Positions 1-16,041 of a DNA stretch of 16,041 bases are shown here, piece after piece. Under the pieces are notes generated by a model that was given only the letters and a program-made list of their open reading frames with translations, searched no databases and had not been told where the DNA came from. This stretch comes from a virus (lineage: Duplodnaviria; Heunggongvirae; Uroviricota; Caudoviricetes). The stretch lies in IMG/VR virus record IMGVR_UViG_3300029877_000022, positions 1 to 16,041 of that record, one strand, 5' to 3'. Both the position numbers and the translations under genes were made by a program. The stretch's first letter is position 1. Every line of letters starts with the position of its first letter.

Positions 1-99
1 CTCTGCGCTGAAATTTCTTTTTTTCATTGGAGCACCTGTGTTGTTCTGAGGTGAGCATATCACCTCTGTTCAGGTGGCCAAATTCAGTGTGCCACTTCA
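1..99 (-). mobile_element. IS3-family insertion sequence end (IS911-like): terminal inverted repeat plus first codons of orfA; element continues beyond the window start
   Basis: Reverse complement of 1..99 reads TGAAGTGGCACACTGAATTTGGCCACCTGAACAGAGGTGATATGCTCACCTCAGAACAACACAGGTGCTCCA followed by ATGAAAAAAAGAAATTTCAGCGCAGAG (MKKRNFSAE). I recognise this from memory as the IS911-type left end and orfA start; not verified by alignment. Element tip at position 99, minus-strand ATG at 26..28. Confidence 0.8.
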
Positions 100-220
100 T
101 CCTGACTTGGTAGGAGCCATTGTCCAATTTGTCTAGGAAGATATAAGTTTCATTATCATGACCCGTATTTCGGTAAAAAATTTGCTTTGAGTTCATTAAA
201 GAAATCCTCTAGAGAAAACT

Positions 221-748
221 ATGGCACTCACCGACAAGCAAGAAATGTTCTGTCGCGAGTACCTCATCGATTTAAACGCCACGCAAGCGGCTATTCGGGC
301 GGGGTACAGCGCAAAAACAGCCAACCGTACCGCATCCGAAAACCTGTCAAAACCTGACATACAATTCAGAATCTCCGAATTGAAAGCACAACGCAATGAC
401 TCTGTTGGAATAAATGCAGAATACGTACTTAATCGCCTTCTTGAAATCGACCAGATGGATGTGCTCGACATTCTCCTGCAAAACGGTGAGTTAAAGCCCA
501 TTAAAGACTGGCCTAAAGTATGGCGCACAACGCTATCAGGAATGGATGTCGTGGAGATGGTATCCGCAGATAGTTCCGCACTTCTGAAGAAAATCAAATG
601 GCCAGATAAGGTCAAAAACCTCGAACTTCTTGGTAAGCATGTTTCCGTTCAGGCATTTAAAGAACAAGCTTCTCATGAGCTAACCGGCAAAGACGGCGGC
701 GCAATCCAGATTGAAACATCACCGATGAGCACTCTATTCGGAAAATGA
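221..748 (+). CDS. Terminase small subunit (Terminase_2-type, N-terminal HTH)
   Basis: 175-aa ORF immediately upstream of and overlapping the large terminase (ATGA overlap at 745..748). N-terminus LTDKQEMFCREYLIDLNATQAAIRAGYSAKTA matches the conserved motif of the phage small terminase family as I recall it. Position is first gene of the packaging/structural operon. Confidence 0.85.
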   Translation: MALTDKQEMFCREYLIDLNATQAAIRAGYSAKTANRTASENLSKPDIQFRISELKAQRNDSVGINAEYVLNRLLEIDQMDVLDILLQNGELKPIKDWPKVWRTTLSGMDVVEMVSADSSALLKKIKWPDKVKNLELLGKHVSVQAFKEQASHELTGKDGGAIQIETSPMSTLFGK

Positions 749-2160
749 CCTCGATTAATCCTATCTTTGAACCGTTCATTGAGGCGCATCGCTACAAAGT
801 CGCCAAAGGCGGTCGAGGTAGCGGTAAGTCATGGGCAATTGCGAGGCTGCTTGTTGAAGCGGCGCGTCGGCAGCCTGTGCGCATCCTCTGTGCTCGTGAA
901 CTGCAAAACAGTATCAGCGATTCGGTAATCCGGTTGCTTGAAGACACCATCGAGCGGGAAGGGTATTCGGCTGAGTTTGAAATTCAGCGTTCAATGATTC
1001 GTCATCTCGGAACGAATGCTGAATTCATGTTCTACGGCATCAAAAACAACCCGACGAAGATTAAATCGCTCGAAGGCATTGATATCTGCTGGGTGGAAGA
1101 AGCGGAAGCGGTAACGAAGGAATCATGGGATATCCTGATCCCAACCATCCGTAAGCCGTTCTCTGAAATATGGGTGAGCTTTAACCCGAAGAACATCCTC
1201 GACGATACCTATCAGCGATTCGTCGTAAATCCTCCCGATGATATTTGCCTGCTGACGGTGAACTACACCGACAACCCGCACTTTCCTGAAGTTCTCCGTC
1301 TGGAGATGGAAGAGTGCAAACGCAGAAATCCGACACTGTATCGTCACATCTGGCTTGGTGAGCCAGTAAGCGCAAGTGATATGGCAATCATCAAACGTGA
1401 ATGGCTTGAAGCCGCAACCGATGCGCACAAGAAACTCGGATGGAAAGCGAAAGGCGCGGTTGTCTCTGCGCATGACCCGTCAGATACAGGGCCAGATGCT
1501 AAAGGTTACGCATCGCGTCACGGTTCGGTGGTTAAGCGCATTGCCGAAGGTCTGCTGATGGACATCAACGAGGGTGCTGACTGGGCTACTTCGCTGGCGA
1601 TTGAAGACGGCGCTGACCATTACCTGTGGGATGGTGATGGTGTTGGTGCCGGGCTACGCAGACAGACAACGGAAGCGTTCTCCGGTAAGAAAATCACCGC
1701 CACGATGTTTAAGGGTAGTGAATCGCCATTCGATGAAGATGCGCCTTATCAGGCCGGAGCATGGGCTGATGAAGTCGTACAGGGCGACAACGTTCGCACT
1801 GTTGGCGATGTGTTCCGCAATAAGCGAGCGCAATTCTATTACGCACTGGCTGACAGGCTGTATCTGACATATCGGGCGGTTGTCCACGGTGAGTATGCAG
1901 ACCCCGACGACATGCTGAGCTTCGACAAAGAAGCGATAGGCGAGAAGATGCTGGAGAAGCTGTTTGCAGAACTGACGCAGATTCAGCGCAAATTCAATAA
2001 TAACGGGAAGCTGGAGCTTATGACTAAGGTCGAAATGAAGCAGAAGCTCGGTATTCCATCTCCTAACCTGGCTGATGCGCTGATGATGTGTATGCATTGC
2101 CCGGAGTCGGCTGCGCAACCCGACTATTCCAGTTACTCAATTCCTTGTGGTGTAGGTTGA
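745..2160 (+). CDS. Terminase large subunit (ATPase/nuclease)
   Basis: 471-aa ORF with Walker A-like KGGRGSGKS near the N-terminus. Size and sequence recalled as very close to the Sf6-type large terminase (about 470 aa). Start overlaps the small terminase stop. Confidence 0.9.
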   Translation: MTSINPIFEPFIEAHRYKVAKGGRGSGKSWAIARLLVEAARRQPVRILCARELQNSISDSVIRLLEDTIEREGYSAEFEIQRSMIRHLGTNAEFMFYGIKNNPTKIKSLEGIDICWVEEAEAVTKESWDILIPTIRKPFSEIWVSFNPKNILDDTYQRFVVNPPDDICLLTVNYTDNPHFPEVLRLEMEECKRRNPTLYRHIWLGEPVSASDMAIIKREWLEAATDAHKKLGWKAKGAVVSAHDPSDTGPDAKGYASRHGSVVKRIAEGLLMDINEGADWATSLAIEDGADHYLWDGDGVGAGLRRQTTEAFSGKKITATMFKGSESPFDEDAPYQAGAWADEVVQGDNVRTVGDVFRNKRAQFYYALADRLYLTYRAVVHGEYADPDDMLSFDKEAIGEKMLEKLFAELTQIQRKFNNNGKLELMTKVEMKQKLGIPSPNLADALMMCMHCPESAAQPDYSSYSIPCGVG

Positions 2161-2161
2161 T

Positions 2162-4360
2162 ATGGCAGAAAAAAAGATGACTGACTGGCATCGCAAGGTG
2201 CTGTGCAACTTTGATAATGCCTGGTCAGCAACGCAGGATATGCGTGAGCAGATTATTGAGGCTCAACGTTTCGTCCGGGTGTCCGGCGCACAGTGGGAAG
2301 GCAGCACAAACGCTGGTTACTCATTTGATGAAGGCAGGTTTGAGCATTACCCGCGCTTTGAACTGAATAAGATTGCCCGTGAATGTGATCGCATCATTGG
2401 CGAGTATCGACAGAATCGCATCAGCGTTAAATTCAGGCCGAAGGACGATAAGGCATCGGAAGCGTTGGCCGAAAAGATGAACGGCAAATTCCGCGCTGAC
2501 TATCAGGAAACATCCGGTGGCGAAGCGTGTGATAACGCATTTGATGATGCTGTAACGGGTGGATTCGGTTGTTTCCGCATGTGTGCCGATTACGAAGATG
2601 AAATGGATCCGAGTAACGAGCAACGCCGTATAAGCCTTCTTCCTGTTTACGACCCAGCGACATGCGTCTTCTTTGATCAGGACAGCAAGCAATATGACCG
2701 CTCTGATGCTATGTGGGCTATGGAAATGTTCTCCATGACGCCCAAAGCGTTCGAGGCTGAATACCCTGATTCCATCGCGGCAAGCCTTTCTCGTGATGAC
2801 ACTGGCACTCAATATGACTGGTCAACGCCCGATGCCATCTATGTTGGACGCTACTACGAAGTTCGCATAGAGAAGGTGAAGCTCACGGCGTGGCGCAACC
2901 CTGTTAGCGGAGAAACGGCAATCTATGATGAAGAGCAAATCAAAGATGTTGTCGACGAGCTAACCGATGGCGCATTCGAACTGATTGGTGAGCGAACGGT
3001 GAAGAAACGCCGCGTTTATTGCGGCCTTCTGTCTGGCGCTGAATGGCTGGAAGAACCGAAGCGTATTCCGGGCGAACATATTCCTCTCATCCCGGTATAT
3101 GGGCGTCGCTCATTTGTTGATAATCAGGAGCGAATCGAAGGCCACGCAGCAAAAGCGATGGATGCACAGCGTCTTGAGAACCTGATGGTTTCCATGATTG
3201 CAGATAACGCTACTCAGGCTGGCGGTGATGGCATTCCTGTAGTTGATGTTGACATGATTCCTGGTCCTCTCGCCAATCATTGGGCGGAGCGCAACAAAAA
3301 GCGCCCGGCGTTCCTGCCGATGGTAAGTCTGAAAAACAAAAACGGAGATATTACTGCGCAGGCTCAGGTCAGCAGTTATACACCTCCAACACAAATGCCT
3401 CCTGCTCTTGCCGGGCTATTACAGTACACCGGAACGGCTATTCAGCAAATTACAGGTGCGTCGCAGCTTGAGAACATGCCGAGCAACGTCGCTACCGATA
3501 CCGTTGATAGCATCTTTAACAGGATGGACACGCAGTCATATATCTACATGGACAACATGGCTAAATCCATGCGTCGCGCTGGCGTTGTGTGGCTTTCTAT
3601 GGCGCGTGAGGTCTATGGCAGCGATACGCCAATGCGCATCGTTAATGAGGACGGCAGCGATGACGTGGCGCTGATGACTGGTGAAGTGGTTGACCGTCAG
3701 ACAGGGCAGGTTATCGCGCTTAACGACCTTTCGCAGGGTAACTATGAAGTGACTGTCGATGTCGGTCAGTCGTTCGCTACTCGCCGTGATGCAACGGTTA
3801 AGTCGTTACTTTCCATGCTGGCACTTATCCCACCAGGAACGCCGAAGCACGACCTTGTATCGTCGATGATTCTCGACAATATGGACGGCGAAGGGATGGA
3901 CGATCTTAAAGAATACAACCGCAATCAGTTGCTTCTGTCTGGAGTTATCAAGCCGAGAACACCAGAAGAACAGCAGATGGTTGAGCAGGCGAAACAACAA
4001 CAGGCCAGTCAGCCGGATCCGGCTATGGTTGCAGCGCAAGGTCAGCTTCTTGCTGGTCAGGCTGAATTGCAGAAAGCGCAGAACGAACAGGCAGCCATTC
4101 AGGTTAAAGCATTCCAGGCACAGACTGATGCTCAGGTTGCTGCGGCAAACGTTGTGAAAATCCTCGCATCTGCCGATAGCCAGCAGAAATCTGATATCCG
4201 CGAGGCTCTGAAACTGCTCGGACAGTTCCAGCAACAGCAAGGAGACAATGCCCGTGCTGATGCAGAGCTTGTCCTGAAAAGTCAGGCGCAGGGACATGCA
4301 CAACGCATGGACATCAGCAGCATCCTGCAAAAATCAACTCAGCAACAACCACAGCAATAA
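2162..4360 (+). CDS. Portal protein (P22 gp1-like)
   Basis: 732-aa ORF directly after the large terminase (stop 2158..2160, ATG 2162). Size close to P22 portal (725 aa). Shares recalled motifs with P22 gp1 (GEHIPLIPVYG, KPRTPEEQQ, DPAMVAAQGQLLAGQAELQKAQN) and has a Q-rich helical C-terminal tail. Confidence 0.9.
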   Translation: MAEKKMTDWHRKVLCNFDNAWSATQDMREQIIEAQRFVRVSGAQWEGSTNAGYSFDEGRFEHYPRFELNKIARECDRIIGEYRQNRISVKFRPKDDKASEALAEKMNGKFRADYQETSGGEACDNAFDDAVTGGFGCFRMCADYEDEMDPSNEQRRISLLPVYDPATCVFFDQDSKQYDRSDAMWAMEMFSMTPKAFEAEYPDSIAASLSRDDTGTQYDWSTPDAIYVGRYYEVRIEKVKLTAWRNPVSGETAIYDEEQIKDVVDELTDGAFELIGERTVKKRRVYCGLLSGAEWLEEPKRIPGEHIPLIPVYGRRSFVDNQERIEGHAAKAMDAQRLENLMVSMIADNATQAGGDGIPVVDVDMIPGPLANHWAERNKKRPAFLPMVSLKNKNGDITAQAQVSSYTPPTQMPPALAGLLQYTGTAIQQITGASQLENMPSNVATDTVDSIFNRMDTQSYIYMDNMAKSMRRAGVVWLSMAREVYGSDTPMRIVNEDGSDDVALMTGEVVDRQTGQVIALNDLSQGNYEVTVDVGQSFATRRDATVKSLLSMLALIPPGTPKHDLVSSMILDNMDGEGMDDLKEYNRNQLLLSGVIKPRTPEEQQMVEQAKQQQASQPDPAMVAAQGQLLAGQAELQKAQNEQAAIQVKAFQAQTDAQVAAANVVKILASADSQQKSDIREALKLLGQFQQQQGDNARADAELVLKSQAQGHAQRMDISSILQKSTQQQPQQ

Positions 4361-4450
4361 TTAACCCATAACGTGCAATGGCTGTCTTTATGAGGCCTGG
4401 CACCCTATTGCCTTCCGATGGGCTGAACATCGAGTAAACAGGGGTAACAA

Positions 4451-5344
4451 ATGGACCAGATGGCAGAAAACACACCAGAAGTTGAAATCGAAACCGACGC
4501 GTCAGAGCAGATTCCTGATGATGTCGAACTGGCTGAAGAAGTCGAAACAGAAGATGGCAGTGAGTCCTCCGGCAATGGTGCAGAGGAAGCTAGTGAAACT
4601 GATGACGACGAATCAGAACAGGAATTCTACTTTGGTGACGAAAAGCTGGATTCGCCAACCAGCGAAGATGGCGCAGAGCATGGACTGGTAAAACACCTGC
4701 GCAAGACGATTAAAGAGAAAGACCGCGAGCTGAAAGAGCTGATGCGTCAGTCTCAGAAACCCGTCGAGCAGCAGCCGGTAATCACTCTACCACCGCGGAT
4801 GCCAAAACTGGACGATGAGGACATCGGTTTCGATGAAGAAATCTACCAGCAACGCATGGCTAAGTGGGCAGAGGATAACGGCAAGTACCAGCAACAGGAG
4901 ATGGCTCGCAAGCAGAAGGAGCAGGAGCTTCAGGCTGCCTATCAAGAGCGATTATCCAAATATCAGCAACGTGTTAAGGCTCTCAAAGTTCCTGGCTATC
5001 AGGAAGCTGAGCAGGCCGTACTCGAGGAAATCCCCATCGAGACACAAAACGCGATCCTGTTTGAGTCAGAGAAGCCGGAAATCGTTGTTCTGGCGCTCGG
5101 TCGCAACGCTGAACTGCGCAAGCAACTGGCAGAAGCTACAAACCCCGTAGCAATTGGTCGTCTGCTGGAACGTATCGAATCGAAGGCCAGAATCATGCCA
5201 AAAGCAAAAACCACGGCAGCCACAACCCCGACAGTTAAGGGGAGCAACGGCGCAGTAATCAATAACCTCGACAAACTGAAAGCCAAGGCGCTGGAAACTG
5301 GTGACTGGACGCCGTATTTCGCCGCTAAAAAGGCAAAAAAATAA
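4451..5344 (+). CDS. Scaffolding protein (P22 gp8-like)
   Basis: 297-aa ORF between portal and coat. Very acidic N-terminus (D/E-rich), charged coiled-coil-like middle, basic C-terminus. Size near P22 gp8 (303 aa). RBS-like AGGGG 8 nt upstream of the ATG. Confidence 0.8.
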   Translation: MDQMAENTPEVEIETDASEQIPDDVELAEEVETEDGSESSGNGAEEASETDDDESEQEFYFGDEKLDSPTSEDGAEHGLVKHLRKTIKEKDRELKELMRQSQKPVEQQPVITLPPRMPKLDDEDIGFDEEIYQQRMAKWAEDNGKYQQQEMARKQKEQELQAAYQERLSKYQQRVKALKVPGYQEAEQAVLEEIPIETQNAILFESEKPEIVVLALGRNAELRKQLAEATNPVAIGRLLERIESKARIMPKAKTTAATTPTVKGSNGAVINNLDKLKAKALETGDWTPYFAAKKAKK

Positions 5345-5362
5345 CCTATCGGAGCATTAAGC

Positions 5363-6616
5363 ATGGCTAACCAATTAGCAAAAGACCTTGAAATCATGTT
5401 CGAAAACTACGTTGAAGGCTTTGAGGCCGCCTGCGTAGTTTCCCGTAACGCTAAAAAATTCCGTCCCGGTGATACAGCAATGCAGCGAGCAGGTGATGTT
5501 CTGTATCGTCCGCAGCATTACCACATGAACATTGAGGAAGGCCTCGACCTCAGCGGCAAAACGCCAACAGCACTGGTTCAGCGCCTTGTTCCTTCTGTGT
5601 TCAAGGAGCCGAAAAACATTCTGTACACTCTGGATGCGCGTGAAATGCGTGACCCGGAACATAAAACTGAAGCTGGTCGCGCCGCAGGTATGCGCCTTGC
5701 TGCACAGATTGACTCGGACCTGATTTCCATGGTCACGCAGCGTGCTACTAACGTGATCACAATGGCTGACTCAACCACTGGTTCACAGGGCCGTGATTTG
5801 TGGAACTGTGCGGCAGGTATTGATGCCACCATGACGGCGATTGGTGTACCACAGGGTATCAACCGCCGCTCTTTCTGGAACCCCTTCAACTACAAAGACC
5901 TTGCTGGCGAGCTTGGTCACCGTGCCTATGCTCAGGGCGCAACCCTGACAGCATACGAAAAAGCGCAGATCCCTCCGGTTGCTTCCTTTGATAGCTACAA
6001 GACCGATATTTCTGGTCGATTACCGAAAGGAAGCACTGAATCCTTGACAGTATCAGGCCAACCTGAACACAAGGTTGAAGCGAAAGATTCAAATGGTATG
6101 CCAGTTGATAACCGACAGGGGACTATTACGGTATCTGCATCTGGCTTGCAGGTTGGTGATGCGTTCACCATTGCCGGTGTGAATTCCGTACACCAGATCA
6201 CAAAAGATACCACCGGTCAACCGCAGGTATTCCGTGTTCTGGCTGTTAGCGGAAATACCGTAACAATTTCTCCAAAGATTCTCCCTGTTGAAAATACTGA
6301 TGTTGCGAGTCGTCCATATGCAAACGTCGATGCCAAACCGGCAGAATCAGCAGCAATCACCATTCTCAACAAGAACGCAGCACCTGCTAACCTGTTCTGG
6401 GCTGATGGTTCTGTTGAGCTTATGTACGGCAAACTGGCGTTCCCGACTGGTCAGGGTCCACAGGTAATGACAGCAACCACCGAGCAGGGCGCTACGCTGA
6501 TCATGTCTTACGCCTTCGACCACATCAAAGGCGTAACCACTGCTCGTTTCACCACTCTGTACGGTTGCTCTGTACTTGTTCCTGAATATACGGGCATCGT
6601 TATTGCCGGGCAGTAA
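5363..6616 (+). CDS. Major coat (capsid) protein (P22 gp5-like)
   Basis: 417-aa ORF after the scaffold gene with GGAG RBS. Size near P22 coat (430 aa). C-terminal region NLFWADGSVELMYGK resembles P22 coat NVFWADDAIRIVSQ from memory. Followed by a terminator hairpin. Confidence 0.85.
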   Translation: MANQLAKDLEIMFENYVEGFEAACVVSRNAKKFRPGDTAMQRAGDVLYRPQHYHMNIEEGLDLSGKTPTALVQRLVPSVFKEPKNILYTLDAREMRDPEHKTEAGRAAGMRLAAQIDSDLISMVTQRATNVITMADSTTGSQGRDLWNCAAGIDATMTAIGVPQGINRRSFWNPFNYKDLAGELGHRAYAQGATLTAYEKAQIPPVASFDSYKTDISGRLPKGSTESLTVSGQPEHKVEAKDSNGMPVDNRQGTITVSASGLQVGDAFTIAGVNSVHQITKDTTGQPQVFRVLAVSGNTVTISPKILPVENTDVASRPYANVDAKPAESAAITILNKNAAPANLFWADGSVELMYGKLAFPTGQGPQVMTATTEQGATLIMSYAFDHIKGVTTARFTTLYGCSVLVPEYTGIVIAGQ

Positions 6617-6620
6617 TTTT

Positions 6621-6646
6621 GGTGGGGCTTCGGCCCCATTTTTATT
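6621..6646 (+). terminator. Rho-independent terminator/attenuator after the coat gene
   Basis: GGGGC-TTCG-GCCCC stem-loop (6624..6637) with a TTCG tetraloop, followed by ATTTTTATT. Lies 5 nt after the coat stop codon. Confidence 0.65.
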
Positions 6647-6657
6647 GGGAGAAGACA

Positions 6658-6846
6658 ATGGCACGAACAATGCTCTATAAGCCTGGCAACATGATCACCT
6701 GTGGTCAGTTTGCTGTCGATTACATCATTGTTGATGACGAAGAAGTTAAATCTCACCTGAAAAAAGGTTGGGTAAAAACTCCTGAAGAAACCGCAACGAA
6801 GCAAAAAGTGGCTAAGGCGGAAGAAGATGGCGAAAACGAAGGGTGA
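6658..6846 (+). CDS. Small hypothetical protein (62 aa) between coat and gp4-like genes
   Basis: ORF-track frame 6619..6846. I place the start at ATG 6658 because GGGAGAAG sits 4 to 11 nt upstream and the 6619 start would lie inside the terminator hairpin. Acidic C-terminus. The 3' end overlaps the gp4-like start by 20 nt. Function unknown. Confidence 0.55.
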   Translation: MARTMLYKPGNMITCGQFAVDYIIVDDEEVKSHLKKGWVKTPEETATKQKVAKAEEDGENEG

Positions 6847-7288
6847 TCTCGTTCTAAAGGCTTTACGAAAAGCCGGGCTGTATTCCAGTGCCACGTTGAC
6901 AGATGCTGACCCTCAGGCAATTGAAGATGCCATTAATGACCTCGAAGACATGATGGCAGCATGGCAGGCTAAAGGTATCGAGCTTGGGTATCAGTTTGCT
7001 GATACAGAAAACGGCATCATGCCGTTACCGGACGATGATTCAGGTATCCCTGCATGGGCAAATGATGGCGTCGCTTTGAAACTCGCTGTGCAAGTGTGCA
7101 TGGATAACGTCATTCAGCCGTCAGACGCTCTCCTTACCGCTGCTGACAGTGCATATCAGACAATCTGTATCGCTTTAACCAAAATACCACCACTTGAGCG
7201 GCGAAATGACATGCCTCGCGGTAGTGGTAACAAAAGCGCGTTTACGTGGAATCGGTTTTACATCGAGAAAGATGATCCGAGTACGTGA
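6827..7288 (+). CDS. Head completion / portal-binding tail adaptor (P22 gp4-like)
   Basis: 153-aa ORF. N-terminus MAKTKGDLVLKALRKAGLYSSATLTDADPQAIEDAINDLEDMMAAW closely parallels recalled P22 gp4 ([44 protein letters not shown]). Gene order matches P22. Confidence 0.85.
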   Translation: MAKTKGDLVLKALRKAGLYSSATLTDADPQAIEDAINDLEDMMAAWQAKGIELGYQFADTENGIMPLPDDDSGIPAWANDGVALKLAVQVCMDNVIQPSDALLTAADSAYQTICIALTKIPPLERRNDMPRGSGNKSAFTWNRFYIEKDDPST

Positions 7289-7297
7289 GGTGAATAA

Positions 7298-8716
7298 ATG
7301 CCGATTCAGCAACTTCCGCTTATGAAAGGTGTCGGCAAAGACTTTCGAAACGCCGACTATATCGACTATCTGCCAGTGAATATGTTGGCTACACCCAAAG
7401 AAATCCTGAACAGCAGCGGATATCTTCGCTCATTCCCGGGCATTGCCAAACGTTCTGATGTGAACGGCGTATCGCGAGGCGTCGAGTACAACATGGCGCA
7501 GAATGCTGTTTATCGCGTGTGTGGTGGCAAACTGTATAAGGGCGAAAGTGAGGTCGGTGATGTTGCCGGAAGTGGTCGCGTATCAATGGCGCATGGTCGA
7601 ACATCACAGGCGGTAGGCGTTAACGGGCAACTGGTCGAATACCGCTATGATGGCACGGTTAAAACCGTCTCAAACTGGCCTGCAGACAGCGGGTTTACGC
7701 AGTATGAGTTAGGTTCGGTTCGCGACATTACGCGTTTACGTGGGCGTTATGCGTGGTCAAAAGACGGCACTGATTCATGGTTTATCACTGACCTTGAAGA
7801 CGAATCGCATCCTGACCGTTACAGCGCACAATATCGTGCCGAGTCTCAGCCGGACGGCATCATCGGTATCGGGACATGGCGAGACTTCATCGTCTGCTTT
7901 GGTTCATCGACTATTGAATATTTCTCCCTTACTGGCGCAACCACCGTTGGTGCTGCTTTGTATGTCGCACAGCCATCACTGATGGTGCAAAAAGGCATCG
8001 CCGGGACTTACTGCAAAACGCCGTTTGCTGATTCTTATGCATTCATCAGCAATCCGGCAACAGGTGCGCCGTCTGTATACATCATCGGCTCCGGTCAGGT
8101 GTTACCAATCGCCAGCGCGAGCATTGAGAAAATCCTCCGCTCCTACACTGCTGATGAACTGGCTGATGGCGTGATGGAATCGTTGCGGTTTGATGCTCAT
8201 GAGTTGCTGATTATTCACCTGCCGCGCCATGTACTCGTGTACGACGCATCTTCAAGCGCTAATGGTCCGCAATGGTGTGTGCTGAAAACAGGCCTGTATG
8301 ACGATGTGTACCGCGCTATCGACTTCATTTACGAAGGCAATCAGATAACGTGCGGCGATAAGCTGGAATCGGTTACCGGTAAATTGCAGTTCGATATCAG
8401 CAGCCAGTACGACAAGCAACAGGAACACCTGCTGTTTACTCCATTGTTCAAAGCGGATAACGCAAGAGTGTTTGACCTTGAAGTTGAATCGTCAACTGGT
8501 GTTGCGCAGTACGCTGACCGCCTGTTCCTCTCTGCTACCACTGACGGCATCAATTACGGTCGTGAGCAGATGATTGAGCAGAATGAACCGTTTGTTTACG
8601 ACAAACGCGTTTTGTGGAAGCGAGTCGGGCGCATCAGGAAAAATGTCGGCTTCAAATTGCGCGTTATCACGAAGTCACCTGTCACTCTGTCTGGTTGCCA
8701 GATAAGGATTGAGTAA
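7298..8716 (+). CDS. Tail hub / tail accessory factor (P22 gp10-like)
   Basis: 472-aa ORF, the same length as P22 gp10, in the syntenic position between the gp4-like and tail needle genes. Confidence 0.8.
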
Positions 8717-9417
8717 TGGCTGATTCGAATCTCAACACCCCTGTTATTGTGCAGGCGACGCGGCTCGATACATCAATCCTTCCACGCAATATATTCAGCC
8801 AGTCTTACCTGTTGTATGTCATTAATCAGGGGGCTGATGTCGGCGCAATTGCCGGGAAGGCAAATCAGGCTGGTCAGGGCGCTTACGATGCCCAGGTAAA
8901 AAACGATGAACAGGATGTCGAACTGGCTGATCACGACGCAAGAATCACCGCAAACACAAAAGCGATAAATCTCCTTGAGGTCAGGTTAACAACCGCCGAA
9001 GGGAAGATAGTCATACTACGTAGCGATGTTGATTACTTGCTGGATGAGGTTATCGATATTCAGGCGCATCTGGTCACTGTTGACCAAATGCTGGATGACG
9101 TAGAAAACGATGTCTCTGGCATTAAGAGTGATTACGTATCGAAAACCGTAACCGAATCGCAGTCTCTTGCGTCACCGCTGGATGTAAAAACATCATATTC
9201 AGTTGATGGAATTCAGGTTGTTGGAGCAAGAAATACCGGATGGACTGCAGCCACAGGTACACCTCTTTTGGGCTCATTCAACGCTAACCAGTCATACACA
9301 GTCGGCACTACGTACACACAATCCGAAGTCGCAGCCCTCGCTACAGGGTTGCAGCAGGCGCGGCAGCGTATTCTGGCGCTTGAAACGGCACTTAGATTAC
9401 ATGGGCTGATTGACTGA
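8716..9417 (+). CDS. Tail needle / cell-puncturing plug protein (P22 gp26-like)
   Basis: 233-aa ORF, the same length as P22 gp26. N-terminus [73 protein letters not shown] and C-terminus [25 protein letters not shown]...HGLID are near-identical to recalled gp26; the central coiled coil diverges. TAATG start/stop overlap with the gp10-like gene. Confidence 0.9.
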
Positions 9418-9872
9418 TGATTACATTCAAACCAACGCGAAACATCGACCTGATAGAAGCCGTAGGAAATCACCCTGACATTATCGCCGGGAGCAACAAC
9501 GGTGATGGATACGACTACAAACCTGATTACCGTTACTTTGAGGTGAACGTGCACGGGCAGTTCGGCGGAATTGTTTACTATCAGGAGATTCAGCCGCTAA
9601 CCTTTGATTGCCACGCCATGTACCTGCCAGAGATTCGCGGCTTCAGCAAGGAAATCGGGCTGGCGTTCTGGCGATACATTCTGACTAACACCACCGTTCA
9701 GTGCGTCACATCGTTCGCTGCGCGCAAATTCCGCCACGGGCAGATGTACTGCGCAATGATTGGCCTTAAGCGTGTAGGGACCATCAAGAAATACTTCAAA
9801 GGCGTGGATGACGTGACGTTTTACAGCGCCACACGCGAAGAACTAATCGACTTCCTGAATCACAGGAGATAG
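9417..9872 (+). CDS. gp14-like virion assembly/ejection-associated protein
   Basis: 151-aa ORF in the position of P22 gene 14 (between needle and ejection protein genes). Start ATG overlaps the needle gene stop (TGATGA). Assignment is by synteny and size only. Confidence 0.6.
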   Translation: MITFKPTRNIDLIEAVGNHPDIIAGSNNGDGYDYKPDYRYFEVNVHGQFGGIVYYQEIQPLTFDCHAMYLPEIRGFSKEIGLAFWRYILTNTTVQCVTSFAARKFRHGQMYCAMIGLKRVGTIKKYFKGVDDVTFYSATREELIDFLNHRR

Positions 9873-9874
9873 CC

Positions 9875-10567
9875 ATGTTATATGCATTTAAGCTGGGCAG
9901 AAAACTGCGCGGCGAGGAACCTTATTACCCTGAAAAAGGCGGGAAAGGTGGCAGTTCTGATAAAAGCGCAAAGTATGCAGCAGAAGCTCAGAAGTATGCC
10001 GCAGACCTGCAAAATCAGCAGTGGCAGACGATCATGAAAAACCTTGCTCCGTTCACGCCTCTTGCGGAGCAGTATGTTAACCAGCTTCAGAACATTTCCA
10101 GTTTAGAAGGTCAGGGGCAGGCACTTAATCAGTATTACAACTCTCAGCAGTATAAAGACCTTGCAGGTCAGGCTCGTTACCAGAGTCTTGCTGCTGCGGA
10201 GGCGACTGGCGGACTTGGTTCGACAGCTACAAGCAATCAACTGGCCACGATTGCCCCGACTCTCGGTCAGTCGTGGTTGTCGAACCAGATGAGCAACTAC
10301 AACAATCTGGCAAACATTGGCCTTGGTGCGCTGCAAGGTCAGGCGAACGCCGGGCAGACATACGCCAACAACATGAGCAGCATTGCGCAGCAAAGCGCAG
10401 CACTTGCCGCTGCTAACGCCAATAAACCATCAGGCCTTCAGACAGCAATTAGCGGTGGCACGTCTGGTGCGATTGCCGGTGCAGGTCTTGCCAGCCTTTT
10501 GGGAACATCAACGCCTTGGGGCGCTGGCATTGGTGCTGGTATCGGATTGCTTGGCTCGTTGTTTTAA
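9875..10567 (+). CDS. Ejection (internal virion) protein, P22 gp7-like
   Basis: 230-aa ORF (P22 gp7 is about 229 aa) with GGAG RBS. Q/N/A-rich low-complexity body and a Gly-rich hydrophobic C-terminus (GAIAGAGLASLLG...GAGIGAGIGLLGSLF) consistent with a membrane-inserting ejection protein. Syntenic position. Confidence 0.75.
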   Translation: MLYAFKLGRKLRGEEPYYPEKGGKGGSSDKSAKYAAEAQKYAADLQNQQWQTIMKNLAPFTPLAEQYVNQLQNISSLEGQGQALNQYYNSQQYKDLAGQARYQSLAAAEATGGLGSTATSNQLATIAPTLGQSWLSNQMSNYNNLANIGLGALQGQANAGQTYANNMSSIAQQSAALAAANANKPSGLQTAISGGTSGAIAGAGLASLLGTSTPWGAGIGAGIGLLGSLF

Positions 10568-10576
10568 GGGGTAATA

Positions 10577-11872
10577 ATGGCTACTTGGCAAGGATCAAAT
10601 GGCGGATTGTTGGCTGGTATCGGCGGCGTCAACTCAAACGCTCCGAGCGTAAATGACATCGGCAATACGCTTCAGCTTATCAGGCAGAACAATGATATTG
10701 AGCGTTCAGGCGCTAACAATGTTGGGCTGACTGCTTTGCAAGGCCTTTCAGGTATTGCAGGAGTGTTTCAGCAGGAAAAGCAGGCTCAGCGGCAGAAAGA
10801 ATTTCAGCAGGCGTACGCTAATGCTTATACGTCTGGTGATCGCGGTGCTTTGCGTCAGTTGGCTACTCAATATCCAGACCAGATTGAATCCGTTCGTAAA
10901 GGCATGGGATTCATTGATGAAGACCAGCGCAATTCCATCGGTACCTTAGCGGCTGGCGCACGCCTTGCGTCATCGTCTCCAGAAGCAATGCAATCATGGC
11001 TGCAAAACAACGCCAAGGAACTGACTCGCGTCGGTGTTGACCCTAATAACGTTGCTCAGATGTATCAGCAGAATCCTTCAGGATTTGGTGAGTTTGTTGA
11101 TCACCTTGGAATGGCTGCTCTTGGTCCGATTGATTACTTCAATGTTCAGGACAAGATGGCTGGTCGTGAGATTGACCGAGGCAGGCTGGCAGAGACAATC
11201 CGCAGCAATCAGGCAGGAGAAGCACTAACAGCTCGAGGTCAGGACATCCAGATACGTGGACAGAACATCAGCGCACAGAATGCTGCTCTTTCCCGAGAAA
11301 TACAAAGAGCAGAATTACAAGAAAAGGCTCTGGACAGACAGATAGCCAGAGAAAGCAATCAGTTAAAGCTTGAAGAGCTAAAACAGAAACAGGCAGATGT
11401 TCGGCAAAAGGCTGACATAGCCCGCGCTGACAGGCAGGCCGCCGCTCAGGGTGCAGTTGATACGTTCAGCACCGCGCTTGATTCTCTCAACGAGATAGAG
11501 CAAAGCCCCGGCCTTTCAAAAGCAGTAGGAATTCGCTCAGCGTTTCCGACAGTTCCTGGCTCTGATGCGGCTAACTTTGAAGCAAGGCTCGACACCTTTA
11601 AAGCTCAAACATTCCTTCCTATGGTGCAGTCCCTGAAGGGTATGGGCGCTCTTTCAGATGCAGAGGGTAAAAAATTATCCGATGCGGTTGGTGCCCTAAG
11701 CCCCAAAATGAGTGAAAAGGCTTTTCGTGACTCTATCGGAAAGATTAGAAATCAGCTTGAAAGCAAGTTGAGCACTGTTAAAAAACAGTTTGATTATCAG
11801 GAGCCGGTGCAGAATATGCCAGGGCAACAATCTACTACTGGCAGTAACTTTTCTTCGCTATGGGGTGATTAA
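10577..11872 (+). CDS. Ejection (internal virion) protein, P22 gp20-like
   Basis: 431-aa ORF in the syntenic position, with AAGGGG RBS. Contains a long charged coiled-coil segment (IRGQNISAQNAALSREIQRAELQEKALDRQIARESNQLKLEELKQKQADVRQKADIARADRQ). Confidence 0.7.
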   Translation: MATWQGSNGGLLAGIGGVNSNAPSVNDIGNTLQLIRQNNDIERSGANNVGLTALQGLSGIAGVFQQEKQAQRQKEFQQAYANAYTSGDRGALRQLATQYPDQIESVRKGMGFIDEDQRNSIGTLAAGARLASSSPEAMQSWLQNNAKELTRVGVDPNNVAQMYQQNPSGFGEFVDHLGMAALGPIDYFNVQDKMAGREIDRGRLAETIRSNQAGEALTARGQDIQIRGQNISAQNAALSREIQRAELQEKALDRQIARESNQLKLEELKQKQADVRQKADIARADRQAAAQGAVDTFSTALDSLNEIEQSPGLSKAVGIRSAFPTVPGSDAANFEARLDTFKAQTFLPMVQSLKGMGALSDAEGKKLSDAVGALSPKMSEKAFRDSIGKIRNQLESKLSTVKKQFDYQEPVQNMPGQQSTTGSNFSSLWGD

Positions 11873-13869
11873 TGGCTAAAGCATGGAAAGATGTTATCGC
11901 CTCTCCACAGTATCAGGCGTTAGCACCAGAACAAAAAGCGCAGGCTCAGGAGCAATACTTCAATGAAGTCGTTGCCCCGCAAGCCGGAGAAAATGCAGAG
12001 CAGGCTAAGCAAGCTTTCTATGCTGCCTATCCATTGCCATCTGTGCAGCCAGTGGAGACACAACAACCAGTATCACAGCAACAACCACAGCAAAGTGGAT
12101 TTATGTCGGATCTTGGTGAAGCCGTGAAAGAAACTGGTCGCGGACTGGTGCAGGCTGGCGTGAACGTGGCAAACATACCTGCATCAGTTGCCGATGCTGT
12201 AACAAGCGCGGCGGCTTGGGCTGGCGGTAAACTCGGAATTGGCGATGGGACATATCACCCAGCGCCACGAGTAACAACGCAGGGATTAGAGCAGGACTTT
12301 GGCCTTCAGCAAGGCGCGCTGACTCCACAAACTACAGAGGGCAGGGTATTTGCTGAGGCATTGCCTTACCTCACTCCTGCTGGCATTGAGAGAGCGGCAA
12401 CACAGGCACCAACACTCGCTGGTAGAATCGCTCAGGGTGCAACTCGCCTTCTCGCTGAAAACGCAGTCGGGTCACTTGCTGCAAATAGTGCGAAAGATGA
12501 TGCGGAAGCACTCGCTACCGATTTAGGCATTGGCGTTCTGGCTGGCGGCGCTATTAACGCTGCCGGACGTGGATTAGGCGCTGCTTATCGTGGCGTTCGT
12601 GGTGCTATTGCACCAGAAGCGCAGCAAGCTATCAGATTTGCAGAGCGTGAAGGAGTGCCTCTGCACACCACAGACCTGTTACAGCCTAGTTCCCGCGTCG
12701 GAAAAATGGCGCAAACGACAGCAGAAAATATCCCCCTGGCTGGCACAAGCGGAATGAGAGCAACGCAACAGGAAGCGAGAAGCCAGTTGGTTCAGAGATT
12801 TGCTGATAAATTCGGTGAGTATGATCCAGCGGTTGTTATTGACAGCCTTAAAGCGAAAACATCAGGAATTCGTCGCGCTGCAGGAAATCGACTGGAGCAG
12901 GTTCAGAATGCTATGGCGGGAATAAACATTCAGCCTGCAAGAGCAATTCAGCAGATTGATACAGAAATATCTAACCTGCAGAAGCTTGGTAAGGTTGCTG
13001 ATAACGAGACTATTTCAAAACTTCAGTCCTATCGTGATGAGCTTGTTCGCAATGCTGGTCCTGATGGTCCGGTAAATCTGGATTTGAAGCAATTAAGCGA
13101 TCTGCGCAGCCAGTTCAGAATGGACGTGAAGGGTGAGCGACCAGTGTTACCAAACCGTTCCGATGCTGCCATTCAGCGCGTTTACAAGGCAATGACCGAC
13201 GATATCAATGGTGCCATTGGTCAGAATCTTGGCAACGATACTCTCCGTAAATATCAGCAGGCCAATGCCGTCTACGCTGACGAAGCCGCGAAACTAAAGA
13301 ATACCAGGCTGAAGAATGTTCTCATGAAAGGCGATCTGACGCCGGAAGTTGTCAACAACATGCTATTCAGCAAGAACAAATCGGAAATTAAGACGCTGTA
13401 TAACTCAGTTGGTCGTGTTGGCAGGGCGCAAATGCGCAATGGCATCATTGGAAAGGCGATGGAGAAATCTGGCGGATCCCCTGACCAGTTCCTTCGGCAG
13501 CTTAACATCCTGCAAAACCAGACTGGCATCACATTTAAGGGGCAGGACGCTGCTTATCTGAAAGGATTAAAAAACTACCTGCAATCTACGCAGCAGGCTG
13601 CAAAAGCGGCAGTAACAACACCCACAGGGCAGCAAACTATCCCGTTCATTATTGGGTATGGGACGGCAATGAACCCTGCGACAACTGGCGCAGCAGTAAG
13701 CTACGGACTTCTTACTCGCGCCTATGAGAGCGAGCCATTCAGAAATGCAATGCTCAGAATGGCAAACACCCCACGCGGATCAACAGCGTTTGAGAAAGCC
13801 ATGCAGCAGGCACAAAAGGCAATTAACGCTATGACGCAGGGGGCTAAGTCTGATGCGTTGTCAGAATAG
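11872..13869 (+). CDS. Ejection (internal virion) protein, P22 gp16-like
   Basis: 665-aa ORF, last gene of the ejection protein trio. TAATG start/stop overlap with the previous gene. Assignment by synteny and size (P22 gp16 about 609 aa). Q/P-rich N-terminal segment. Confidence 0.7.
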   Translation: MAKAWKDVIASPQYQALAPEQKAQAQEQYFNEVVAPQAGENAEQAKQAFYAAYPLPSVQPVETQQPVSQQQPQQSGFMSDLGEAVKETGRGLVQAGVNVANIPASVADAVTSAAAWAGGKLGIGDGTYHPAPRVTTQGLEQDFGLQQGALTPQTTEGRVFAEALPYLTPAGIERAATQAPTLAGRIAQGATRLLAENAVGSLAANSAKDDAEALATDLGIGVLAGGAINAAGRGLGAAYRGVRGAIAPEAQQAIRFAEREGVPLHTTDLLQPSSRVGKMAQTTAENIPLAGTSGMRATQQEARSQLVQRFADKFGEYDPAVVIDSLKAKTSGIRRAAGNRLEQVQNAMAGINIQPARAIQQIDTEISNLQKLGKVADNETISKLQSYRDELVRNAGPDGPVNLDLKQLSDLRSQFRMDVKGERPVLPNRSDAAIQRVYKAMTDDINGAIGQNLGNDTLRKYQQANAVYADEAAKLKNTRLKNVLMKGDLTPEVVNNMLFSKNKSEIKTLYNSVGRVGRAQMRNGIIGKAMEKSGGSPDQFLRQLNILQNQTGITFKGQDAAYLKGLKNYLQSTQQAAKAAVTTPTGQQTIPFIIGYGTAMNPATTGAAVSYGLLTRAYESEPFRNAMLRMANTPRGSTAFEKAMQQAQKAINAMTQGAKSDALSE

Positions 13870-13962
13870 CTTTTCAAACACCAGGAACGTGCAAAAACCA
13901 AATATGTAGAACGCGAGGTTTATCGTATCCCTCTGCATAGGCGATGATACATTTGCTGATTG

Positions 13963-14448
13963 TTATCTGATGTTACTGCTACTGTTGCATGTGACTGTAT
14001 TTCCAAACCCTGAATTGCAGTTTGTGTAAGTTTCAACTCGTGTTGGATAGGGTTGAGTTATAACAGGCTGTCTCGCTTTTTGCTCGATCGCTTGCATTGT
14101 GTTTACAGCCTGATAATTCAATAAAGCCTGCTGGAATGCTTGGCTTTGCGCTATTTGTTGGGCTTGTTCTTGGCTTTGTAGTTGAACATAAAGATTCTGA
14201 AGCTCAAGTCTTGCCTGCGCGTCACTTATCTTGCCATCATCGACACCTTGCCCGAGCATCTTCGCAGCAAGGACATATAACTTAGGTGTTGGTGCTGATG
14301 CCATGCGTGAGTCGTTCTTCACGCTAGCATCAAGGCAATTAGCCATATCGCTAAGCTTTGGATAGCGTTGTTCGCAATTTGCCTGATAGTCGCTAACCTT
14401 TGCGCACCCTGCCAGCAGAAGCGGGATAATTAACAGTGATTTTTTCAT
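13963..14448 (-). CDS. Predicted secreted lipoprotein, function unknown (accessory/moron gene)
   Basis: Minus-strand ORF. I place the start at the ATG at 14446..14448 (MKKSLLIIPLLLAGC) because AAGGAG lies 9 nt upstream and this gives a canonical lipoprotein signal peptide with lipobox LAGC. Mature part has cysteines near both ends and a Q-rich helical middle. No recognisable homologue from memory. Confidence 0.7.
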   Translation of the reverse strand: MKKSLLIIPLLLAGCAKVSDYQANCEQRYPKLSDMANCLDASVKNDSRMASAPTPKLYVLAAKMLGQGVDDGKISDAQARLELQNLYVQLQSQEQAQQIAQSQAFQQALLNYQAVNTMQAIEQKARQPVITQPYPTRVETYTNCNSGFGNTVTCNSSSNIR

Positions 14449-14582
14449 ATGATTAACTCTCCTTATCTTTGCCATCATGGCACTGTTGGGTGTAAATGAG
14501 TTATTAACTCAATCGACAATATCTTCACGAAAATACTTTTTATTATTAAGATCTTTCTGATTCTAACAAAACGGAAAGTAAT

Positions 14583-15002
14583 ATGAAGAGGATTATCGGC
14601 GTCGTTGCTGGCGCTATATTGTTATCTGGGTGCGCAACTATTGTTGGTGATGAAACGCAGCTTGTGCAAGTGAACAGCAATCCTTCTGGCGCGAGCTTTA
14701 AGGTAAAAGATGAATCTGGTGTGATTGTTGCGCAAGGTAAGACTCCACAAGGTGTAACACTCGCCAAGTCAGATGGTAGCTATTTTGGCAAAAAGAGCTA
14801 CCAGATCACTATGGAGAAGGATGGGTACGAACCAGTTACCCTGCCAATCAAAGCCAATGCTAATGGTTGGTATATTGGTGGGAACCTTGTGTTTGGTGGG
14901 TTAATTGGTTGGCTTGCTGTAGATCCATTTAATGGTGGGATGTATACCTTGAAGCCTAAAGAGGCAAATGCATCCCTTATACCGTCCACAAAGCAAGACT
15001 AA
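14583..15002 (+). CDS. Predicted lipoprotein with PEGA-like domain, function unknown (accessory/moron gene)
   Basis: 139-aa ORF with lipoprotein signal MKRIIGVVAGAILLSGC (lipobox LSGC). Middle region NPSGASFKVKD...GKTPQGVTL...YQITMEKDGYEP resembles the PEGA domain pattern. Gly/Trp-rich C-terminal segment GWYIGGNLVFGGLIGWLAVDPFNGGMYTL. Followed by a terminator. Confidence 0.7.
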   Translation: MKRIIGVVAGAILLSGCATIVGDETQLVQVNSNPSGASFKVKDESGVIVAQGKTPQGVTLAKSDGSYFGKKSYQITMEKDGYEPVTLPIKANANGWYIGGNLVFGGLIGWLAVDPFNGGMYTLKPKEANASLIPSTKQD

Positions 15003-15009
15003 TAAATGG

Positions 15010-15033
15010 AACCCACCATCAGGTGGGTTTTTT
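15010..15033 (+). terminator. Rho-independent terminator after the lipoprotein gene, overlapping the mnt stop codon
   Basis: AACCCACC-ATCA-GGTGGGTT hairpin (15010..15029) followed by a T-run to 15033. The poor U-tract on the opposite strand suggests it acts mainly on + strand transcripts. Confidence 0.7.
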
Positions 15034-15270
15034 GTACAAATCCTTCAGCGTATCAAACACCATCTTCTTAACAAGTTCAGACTGCTCATCAGCGATGCGT
15101 TCCGCATCGTCTCGATAGCCTGAAATTTTGGATGGCCTTGATACAGCATCAGTCACTATCTGAACTAATTCTGAATTAAGAGAGCGGCCATTGGATTTGG
15201 CTCGCTGTTTTAGTTTTTCCTTTAATTCGTAAGGTAGCCGCAGATTAAATTGCGGGTCATCTCTTCCCAT
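15019..15270 (-). CDS. mnt: Mnt repressor (ribbon-helix-helix, Arc/MetJ family)
   Basis: 83-aa minus-strand ORF MGRDDPQFNLRLPYELKEKLKQRAKSNGRSLNSELVQIVTDAVSRPSKISGYRDDAERIADEQSELVKKMVFDTLKDLYKKPT. Near-identical in length and sequence to P22 Mnt as I recall it, including the N-terminal beta-strand DNA-reading motif and C-terminal tetramerisation helix. Confidence 0.9.
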   Translation of the reverse strand: MGRDDPQFNLRLPYELKEKLKQRAKSNGRSLNSELVQIVTDAVSRPSKISGYRDDAERIADEQSELVKKMVFDTLKDLYKKPT

Positions 15271-15332
15271 TCTTGATGCCTCGCTCTTGTGAGTGGATCG
15301 GCATCTTATTATCTGCTGGTTGCATCCTCAAT

Positions 15333-15349
15333 AAGACCACGGTGGTCGT
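15333..15349. promoter_or_regulatory. Mnt operator-like 17-bp palindrome
   Basis: AAGACCACGGTGGTCGT has a symmetric core GACCAC-G-GTGGTC (15335..15347). It resembles the P22 Mnt operator as I recall it (AGGTCCACGGTGGACCT). Located in the 135-bp gap between the mnt start and the tailspike start. Confidence 0.6.
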
Positions 15350-15405
15350 ATTTTTTGATTAATAATGAATCACTGCGGCCATTCCTTGTATCTGGAGCAA
15401 ATTAA

Positions 15406-15945
15406 ATGACAGACATTACAGCCAATGTTGTAGTGAGTATGCCTTCGCAACTCTTCACTATGGCTCGTTCTTTTAAAGCCGTAGCCAATGGCAAAATTTA
15501 TATCGGTAAAATTGACACTGACCCGGTAAATCCTGAAAACCAGATTCAGGTCTATGTTGAGAACGAAGATGGTTCTCACGTTCCTGTTGCACAGCCAATC
15601 GTCATCAATGCCGCAGGGTATCCAGTATATAACGGACAGATTGCCAAATTCGTTACCGTGCAAGGCCATTCTATGGCTGTTTATGATGCGTATGGTGCAC
15701 AGCAGTTCTATTTTCCTAATGTGCTGAAGTATGACCCGGATCAGTTTAAACAAAAAGTATTATCAAATGATATGCTAAATATGTCTCCTCTTTATTTTGG
15801 AGCTAAGGGGGATGGGATTAGCGATGATACTGAAGCATTTGTCGCGTTGGAAATGGATATAAAAAATAGGGTTATTGATTTAAGTGGAAGAGCATTTTTT
15901 GTTACTAAAAGTTTTATTGGAAATAGCTATATAAATGGTTCTTAG
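15406..15945 (+). pseudogene. Tailspike gene truncated by IS2 insertion; retains the P22-type head-binding domain and the start of a pectate-lyase-like receptor-binding domain
   Basis: N-terminus [59 protein letters not shown]...[15 protein letters not shown]...[10 protein letters not shown] is the conserved tailspike head-binding domain. It is followed by an AT-rich segment encoding [16 protein letters not shown]. The frame ends at a TAG that is the first 3 nt of the IS2 end (15943), so the ORF is 179 codons instead of the 600 to 700 expected. Confidence 0.85.
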
Positions 15946-16041
15946 ACTGGCCCCCTGAATCTCCAGACAACCAGTATCACTTAAATAAGTGATAGTCTTA
16001 ATACTAGTTTTTAGACTAGTCATTGGAGAACAGATGATTGA
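15943..16041 (+). mobile_element. IS2 left end (IRL, orfA promoter region and orfA start codon); element continues beyond the window end
   Basis: TAGACTGGCCCCCTGAATCTCCAGACAACCAGTATCACTTAAATAAGTGATAGTCTTAATACTAGTTTTTAGACTAGTCATTGGAGAACAGATGATTGA matches the IS2 left end as I recall it, ending with ATGATTGA (MID..., the start of the first IS2 ORF). One possible mismatch to my recalled consensus (CCAGTATC here, CCAATATC recalled). Confidence 0.85.

Follow-up and report, generated by a model that had tools for sequence, protein, structure and literature searches.

The late half of a P22-like Escherichia coli prophage, very probably interrupted only recently by IS911 and IS2

We analysed a 16,041-nucleotide stretch of viral DNA (positions 1 to 16,041 of IMG/VR virus record IMGVR_UViG_3300029877_000022; hereafter, the window), in which the structural genes of a tailed phage lie between the ends of two different insertion sequences (IS), IS911 on the left and IS2 on the right. 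The window is very probably the virion half of an ordinary P22-like prophage of Escherichia coli that was hit very recently by two common IS of the IS3 family and whose contig was cut at both of them. In the course of events that we propose, a P22-like, Lederbergvirus-type temperate phage would reside in the E. coli chromosome, with the window representing its late (virion) half. The first event, older and more widely sampled, would have produced an IS911 junction within a yodC-like moron upstream of terS; the second, in a sub-lineage, would have been a simple copy-in insertion of IS2, with duplication of GTTCT, into the tailspike gene after codon 178, such that the gene was split without being deleted. 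A short-read assembler would then have cut the contig at both IS copies. The outcome would be a prophage that has no functional tailspike and cannot make infectious particles alone, and in which at least 1.25 kb of IS911 stands between the late operon and the region normally upstream of it, whereas its 13 head, tail-hub and ejection genes would look perfect only because there has been too little time for mutations. We infer where in the chromosome the prophage sits, which event came first and that function was lost; nothing in the data contradicts the decay of a prophage.

Comparison of the window with close relatives that lack the IS copies, which the initial annotation had suggested as a check, recovered intact loci between torS and torT that are 99.99-100% identical to the window over its phage part. 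There were no mismatches to L002 (window 100-10748), L008 (1872-15943) and L015 (4651-15943) and one mismatch to L006; L006, L009 and L012 differ by one or two bases. The corresponding genes are full length in L002, L008 and L015, to which window 100-15943 is 100% identical, so that the genes of the window contain no frameshifts, in agreement with the initial annotation. The presence of zero substitutions in 15.8 kb indicates that the IS events are recent and that the intactness of the genes carries no information on selection, as the genes appear intact because the insertions are too recent for decay to show. Of the two possibilities that had been raised, namely that the insertions are recent or that the cassette is being maintained, the zero divergence from uninterrupted relatives supports the first, and with it the suggestion of a freshly crippled prophage, and gives no support to the second.

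In the identical relatives, the prophage lies between torS and torT, with genes for a lambda-type integrase and an excisionase next to torS and the tailspike gene and a family-2 glycosyltransferase gene on the torT side, and all relatives that contain this DNA carry it at this one chromosomal site. The torS-torT intergenic site is the HK022 attB, and prophages are found there in about 5% of E. coli genomes (PMC6814406). Most likely, the prophage of the window sits at the same site. The integrase and att, immunity, replication, Q and lysis genes are outside the window and are present in the 99.99-100% identical relatives. Shigella was also considered as a source; the named relatives and the protein records are all from E. 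coli.

The same prophage type was also found in states of partial loss. In L002 (GCA_017733175.1; 7112-8360), IS911 joins ea22 to a truncated lysozyme gene, with the whole early region gone, and in GMF054 (L017 13231-14479), it joins a truncated integrase gene to a truncated gp7, with everything from integrase to gp7 gone; neither junction shows a target duplication. The GMF054 remnant is 100% identical to the window over 10079-15943. In L013 (QOOH01000016), a deletion extends from the early left operon into gp20. Because the IS911-associated deletion junctions of L002 and GMF054 arose independently in the same prophage type, the sequences indicate that IS911-driven decay is ongoing in this prophage lineage, and the nested IS911 junctions of the window lineage, GMF054 and GCA_017733175.1 form a natural series that illustrates stepwise prophage decay.

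At the right end, window 15943-16041 (+ strand) consists of the left end of IS2 (left terminal repeat, IRL, TAGACTGGCC...) followed by the start of orfA (ATGATTGA), and is identical at 99/99 positions to an annotated 1331-bp IS2 in L018, as the initial annotation had it. The element runs on past the right edge of the window, L001 reaching 28 nt further into it, and only about 99 nt of each of the two IS lie within the window. Identity to the intact tailspike gene stops at 15943. The tailspike 5' fragment (15406-15945, + strand; Pfam Head_binding, 1-113/113; aligned to the 881-amino-acid (aa) tailspike of L008) is an open reading frame (ORF) of 178 aa, vs. 881 aa in the relatives, and its stop codon, TAG, comes from the IS2 terminus. 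This fragment comprises the whole head-binding domain (residues 1-113) and 65 residues of the receptor-binding part; a complete tailspike with both domains was not found in the window, in which 178 of the 881 residues precede IS2. The truncation that had been noted is thus real.

To characterize the other side of this insertion, the reciprocal junction was built in silico from the right terminal repeat (IRR) of IS2 (taken from L018), the 5-bp duplication GTTCT and the remaining tailspike sequence of L008. The construct predicts an ORF of 716 aa with its GTG start codon within the IS2 IRR, and this exact 716-aa sequence was identified in the public collection (P0021; ENA, 2 contigs, the longest of 3502 bp), together with a 675-aa form (P0020), for which the first internal ATG serves as start. 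Judged from its sequence, the exact match to P0021 can only come from the other side of the same IS2 insertion. Given the exact matches to P0021 and P0020, the tailspike was therefore split by IS2 and not deleted, with its 3' part just beyond IS2, and IS2 is a simple insertion with a 5-bp target duplication, GTTCT, which is seen in related assemblies and probably holds for the source of the window as well. That the P0021 contig extends for 3.5 kb is accounted for by a further assembly breakpoint, a (TGGC)n microsatellite located about 1.2 kb downstream of the tailspike. Other truncated forms of this tailspike (158-180 aa; P0014-P0019) are present in public data, several of them contig-end partials, and in other closed E. 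coli genomes P22-like tailspike genes are interrupted by IS2 or IS3-family elements just past the part that encodes the head-binding domain (H35-H37). The recurrence of truncation and insertion at the boundary of this domain may be partly artefactual.

At the left end, window 1-99 (- strand) consists of the left end of IS911 (IRL, TGAAGTGGCACAC...) and the first 9 codons of orfA (MKKRNFSAE). This segment is identical at 99/99 positions both to the L002 copy and to the copies in L017, for which the RefSeq annotation reads 'IS3-like element IS911 family transposase' (94-97% identity to ISEc52), so that the element initially described as IS911-like can be named IS911. It runs on past the left edge of the window, and its transcription points away from the phage genes. 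At the junction (99/100, mapped against L006 9879/9880), about 120 bp upstream of terS, IS911 cuts a gene of the yodC family, of which the first 32 of 77 codons remain (100-196, - strand). In intact relatives, terS has this yodC-like moron immediately upstream, on the - strand; L004 and L006 have the gene in its intact 77-aa form, and the annotation of PK6 lists a YodC family gene at the corresponding position. Where the 5' part of yodC reads into the IRL, a 66-aa fusion ORF results (P0036), which was found on 5 further contigs. One contig, L020 (421 kb, NCBI; GCA_014328055.1), starts at the IS911 junction and continues through the late genes, without the truncated tailspike. Since the truncated tailspike occurs only on contigs of 10-20 kb, the strain of L020 would have the IS911 junction without this IS2 event, from which we infer that the IS911 junction is older or more widespread than the IS2 event. 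The trinucleotide GGA that L002 and the window share beside the IRL was considered as a mark of a common event and rejected as a 3-nt coincidence; the other flank in L002 is mismatched.

What lies beyond IS911 bears on how the late operon came to its present state. The 10-kb metagenome scaffold L021 runs, at the left junction of the window, through a complete IS911 of 1249 bp that contains HTH_Tnp_1 and rve ORFs, and enters an ISNCY-remnant/SIR2/hipA region; the flanks of the element (GGA vs. GAC) show no target duplication. In complete genomes, this region is ordinary chromosome beside a LysR gene, about 0.5 Mb from torS. L023 ends exactly at the IRR end of IS911, which implies at least two exits from the element, as far as contig sequences can tell. 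In the closed genome of GMF054, an internally deleted IS911 is found at the same site between LysR and the ISNCY remnant (L026 8375-9111), inverted relative to the prophage IS911 and 0.51 Mb away from it; the region is not inverted there. Through IS911, L021 (5595-10002) connects the prophage junction with this ISNCY-remnant/SIR2/hipA locus. The scaffold may reflect a true inversion with an IS911 copy at either end, or may have been assembled chimerically through the 1.25-kb repeat. The ORFs predicted for a simple IS911 insertion (72, 74, 75, 51 and 50 aa, with 3- or 4-bp duplications) were absent from the protein collection, although ORFs as short as these are often uncalled, and scans of JGI metagenomes for the junction between the yodC remainder and IS911 and for the left junction of the window gave no match in a collection that does not contain this lineage. 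Beyond IS911, there may thus be a contiguous prophage with a simple insertion, an inversion or a deletion junction; an inversion or a deletion is, taken jointly, somewhat more likely than a simple insertion because the other IS911 junctions in or next to this prophage type (L002, GMF054 and L021) have no target duplication.

We give about even chances to the explanation that an IS911-mediated deletion or inversion cut the virion module off from the rest of the prophage and left an orphan late operon without a promoter, either as a truncated integrase-IS911-truncated yodC arrangement, that is, a precursor of the GMF054 state, or through an inversion of about 0.5 Mb against the IS911 beside the ISNCY remnant, SIR2 and hipA. 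Consistent with the former, the remnant in GMF054 has IS911 in the same orientation as the window, with a truncated integrase on the other side; the inverted, internally deleted copy between LysR and ISNCY in GMF054, the junction in L021 and the stop of L023 at the IRR end are also counted in favour of this explanation. Conversely, L021 is a metagenome scaffold and may be chimeric, none of the contigs seen from the lineage of the window crosses IS911, and the absence of inversion in closed GMF054 speaks against the inversion. A more far-reaching version of this scenario appears improbable: that the IS911 rearrangement (the inversion of about 0.5 Mb suggested by L021, with IS911 beside hipA) separated the virion operon from the regulatory and lysis half, and that the orphan cassette persists in several human-gut samples, where it could be exploited by, or interfere with, a co-resident P22-like phage. 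If it were true, one route could be recombinational rescue of the virion genes by the co-resident phage, and another could be competition of the expressed head-binding fragment for tailspike sites on related virions.

The alternative of an otherwise complete prophage with two simple IS insertions (IS911 in the yodC-like moron and IS2 in the tailspike gene), in which integrase, immunity, replication, Q and lysis genes are still contiguous, is possible and the less favoured of the two. IS2 was found to be a simple insertion, and in the closest analogue, VTB97022v, a 1331-bp IS2 with a 5-bp duplication likewise interrupts another P22-like tailspike gene whose 3' part is kept; moreover, the IS911 junction is in a dispensable moron, and in lambdoid phages Q-modified polymerase can read through insertions. 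Against it, the reciprocal junction ORFs, with the yodC remainder beside the IS911 IRR, were not found in the collection, the IS911 junctions seen elsewhere in or beside this prophage type, three in all, have no target duplication and represent deletions or rearrangements, and the genome of a P22-like phage probably has too little headful terminal redundancy to accommodate the approximately 2.6 kb added by the two IS. Under this alternative, induction would yield tailspike-less heads that could be activated by a purified or co-expressed compatible tailspike.

Our interpretation of the window as one half of an ordinary, recently interrupted prophage is qualified by several observations: the window itself carries no chromosomal flank; the predicted reciprocal ORFs of a simple IS911 insertion are missing from the collection, with the qualification on short ORFs already given; and the only scaffold that crosses IS911 leads, by inversion or chimerism, to a region about 0.5 Mb away.

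The apparent bracketing of the virion genes by two IS is a separate matter. The truncated tailspike protein was found on 5 contigs, all of 10-20 kb. L001, an independent MEGAHIT k127 contig of 16,097 bp assembled from human gut metagenomic data, has the sequence of the window extended on either side by 28 nt of IS, and a 16,006-bp E. coli contig at NCBI carries this truncation too, with a single amino-acid difference. In complete E. coli genomes, ends like those of IS2 and IS911 have thousands of matches, and neither junction was found in the closed E. coli genomes searched. These features are the signature of a whole short-read contig bounded by repeats, the extent of which appears to track the k-mer of the assembler. 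Contigs end in multi-copy IS repeats, and therefore any stretch between two IS copies looks IS-bounded in a short-read assembly. The description of the block as bounded by two IS accordingly stands insofar as the junctions themselves are real and reproducible, whereas the bracketing is largely an assembly (repeat-breakpoint) effect. The lesson in method is that a contig that starts and ends in IS termini should not be taken for a self-contained unit bounded by IS, given that repeats bring assemblers to a halt.

The initial annotation had also considered an IS-mobilisable structural cassette. The probability that IS911 and IS2 jointly act as a composite transposon that moves the virion genes is negligible. 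The geometry, with one IS at each end, resembles such a transposon only superficially: both IRLs face inward, towards the phage genes, and the transposase genes of both point outward. The ends, however, belong to two different elements whose terminal repeats are dissimilar (17/40 first positions shared), and a repeat search found nothing that links the two ends of the window and no att-like repeats. Furthermore, the IS911 and IS2 junctions occur independently of each other, with different distributions across assemblies, and the relatives are all at one chromosomal site. IS3-family elements transpose via a circle that joins the two ends of the element itself.

It is also very unlikely that the module is maintained or domesticated, that is, kept by selection as a helper-dependent, gene-transfer-agent-like or defensive structure, for example through a head-binding fragment that poisons related phages. 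The intactness of all 13 genes, the retention of the complete head-binding domain in the truncated product, the other truncated tailspikes of 158-180 aa and the recurrence of IS insertions just after the head-binding domain in other strains would all fit such a role. However, zero divergence from functional-looking prophages provides no information on selection, several of the 'truncated' proteins are partial sequences at contig ends, neither an independent promoter nor rewired regulation was observed, and the sister lineages GMF054 and L013 show further random deletion.

With regard to function, a tailspike gene split by IS2 combined with an expressed late operon would give the phenotype of P22 gene 9-null mutants, that is, DNA-filled heads that are non-infectious until tailspike is added. 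In P22-like phages, to our knowledge, no promoter belongs to the late genes themselves, which rely on Q-type antitermination from a late promoter upstream of the lysis genes. The Q-dependent late promoter and lysis region would be on the far side of IS911, outside the window, and neither IS is oriented to drive the late operon. Complementation of this prophage by a helper phage or a tailspike, an idea long familiar from P22, is possible and would also need late transcription.

The ORF map, with family assignments from Pfam and PHROGs searches, contains 13 consecutive P22-type morphogenesis ORFs on the + strand, all intact, at 221-13869. The terminase pair, P22-type portal, scaffold and P22-type coat follow one another in that order: terS, the small terminase (221-748; Pfam Terminase_2, E = 3.5e-40); terL, the large terminase (745-2160; 471 aa, as in vB_EcoP-720R6; Pfam Terminase_3, E = 3.3e-41); the portal (2162-4360; Pfam P22_portal, E = 2.3e-170); the scaffold (4451-5344; PHROG 648, head scaffolding protein, E = 4e-118); and the coat (5363-6616; Pfam P22_CoatProtein, E = 9e-77). 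Between the coat gene and gp4 is a conserved 62-aa ORF of unknown function (6658-6846; PHROG 1175), which occupies the same place in the relatives and in phage 720R6. The tail hub and needle are all present, comprising a gp4-like tail accessory or head completion protein (6827-7288; Pfam P22_Tail-4, E = 2.4e-40), a gp10-like packaged-DNA stabilisation protein (7298-8716; Pfam Phage_stabilise, E = 6e-301) and a gp26-like tail needle (8716-9417; PHROG 1219, tail needle protein, E = 3e-112), and so are the ejection proteins, which follow a gp14-like protein (9417-9872; Pfam DUF2824, E = 3e-52) and are similar to gp7 (9875-10567; Pfam P22_gp7, E = 1.3e-133), gp20 (10577-11872; Pfam Inj_translocase, E = 2.8e-77) and gp16, the last with a transglycosylase region (11872-13869; PHROG 770, DNA transfer protein, E = 1.7e-238; precomputed match to Phage_P22_gp16). 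Start and stop codons overlap at 745/748, 6827/6846, 8716, 9417 and 11872, as had been described. The initial count of 14 consecutive ORFs, conversely, has to be lowered to 13, because three accessory genes, of which two lie on the - strand, come between the virion block and the 14th gene, that of the tailspike.

The first of these accessory genes (13963-14448, - strand; PHROG 6067) encodes a protein of unknown function that has 161 aa in all relatives, and the second (14583-15002, + strand; PHROG 6823) a 139-aa protein annotated as a transthyretin-like domain protein; both N-termini, read from the sequence, are lipoprotein-like. The two genes lie between gp16 and mnt, at the position of sieA in P22, and are candidates for superinfection-exclusion or surface-modifying morons. 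A terminator-like hairpin (15010-15029) is located 3' of the 139-aa gene. The third gene is mnt, which encodes an Mnt-type ribbon-helix-helix repressor (15019-15270, - strand; Pfam Arc and Repressor_Mnt); its immediate neighbour is the tailspike gene, transcribed divergently from it, with neither arc nor ant in between (15019-15405). An Rfam scan of the window identified no RNA family.

Two further features were observed in the relatives. A perfect (TGGC)n array lies outside the window, approximately 1.17 kb past the tailspike stop codon, at the 5' end of the family-2 glycosyltransferase gene, which is on the - strand (L017 23624-23903, L009 17352-17443, L011 17352-17387, L013 17346-17405 and L015 14573-14652). 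Its copy number across strains is 9, 14, 15, 20, 23 or 70; at 9 or 15 copies, the glycosyltransferase is called through the repeat (438 or 446 aa), vs. an internal start at 23 or 70 copies (371 aa). The array looks like a slipped-strand phase switch, which would be unusual for E. coli; a literature search found no description of it. In L011 (4607-6698), a gene similar to HNH/NUMOD4 homing endonucleases is inserted at the 5' end of gp10, with a 34-aa gp10 fragment upstream of the full-length copy.

Insertion of IS and IS-mediated deletion are a textbook route to defective prophages in E. coli and Shigella. The present case is an event of this known kind, in which the phage, the integration site and both IS elements were already known, and its biological importance as an ordinary decaying prophage is low. 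More generally, the intactness of genes is uninformative on selection when their sequence is identical to that of functional relatives.

Comparison of the window with P22-like phages (Lederbergvirus of the Sf6/CUS-3/Sf101 type; vB_EcoP-720R6, Sf101, CUS-3 and Sf6) shows the same order from terS to the tailspike gene and the same protein families, and the best phage matches are 94-96% identical in nucleotide sequence over 50-82% of the window. Gene lengths are equal between vB_EcoP-720R6 and the window for terL, portal, scaffold, coat, gp4, gp10 and gp16 and unequal for terS, needle, gp14, gp7 and gp20, the gene order being the same. The window differs from these phages in that IS2 interrupts its tailspike gene at codon 178 and one end of IS911 is found 120 bp upstream of terS, whereas the differences in the terS allele and in the receptor-binding part of the tailspike represent the usual mosaicism. 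Much closer are the uninterrupted torS-torT prophages (L006, L008, L009, L012 and L015), which are 99.99-100% identical over the whole phage part of the window and, unlike it, contain no IS and have an intact 881-aa tailspike gene followed by the family-2 glycosyltransferase gene, as well as an intact yodC-like gene. GMF054, GCA_017733175.1 and QOOH01000016 contain the same prophage at 100% identity, decayed via IS-associated junctions, with IS911 in GMF054 in the same orientation; in contrast to the window, they have other breakpoints, have already lost virion or early genes and lack the IS2 insertion. Finally, the P22-like remnant of E. coli VTB97022v resembles the window in that a 1331-bp IS2, flanked by a 5-bp duplication, is inserted just downstream of the head-binding domain, with the 3' part of the gene kept, but it is a different prophage, at a site in the argW/intS region, with another insertion point and most of its virion genes deleted, and it displays the P22 immI layout, from which the adjacency of mnt and tailspike gene in the window differs.

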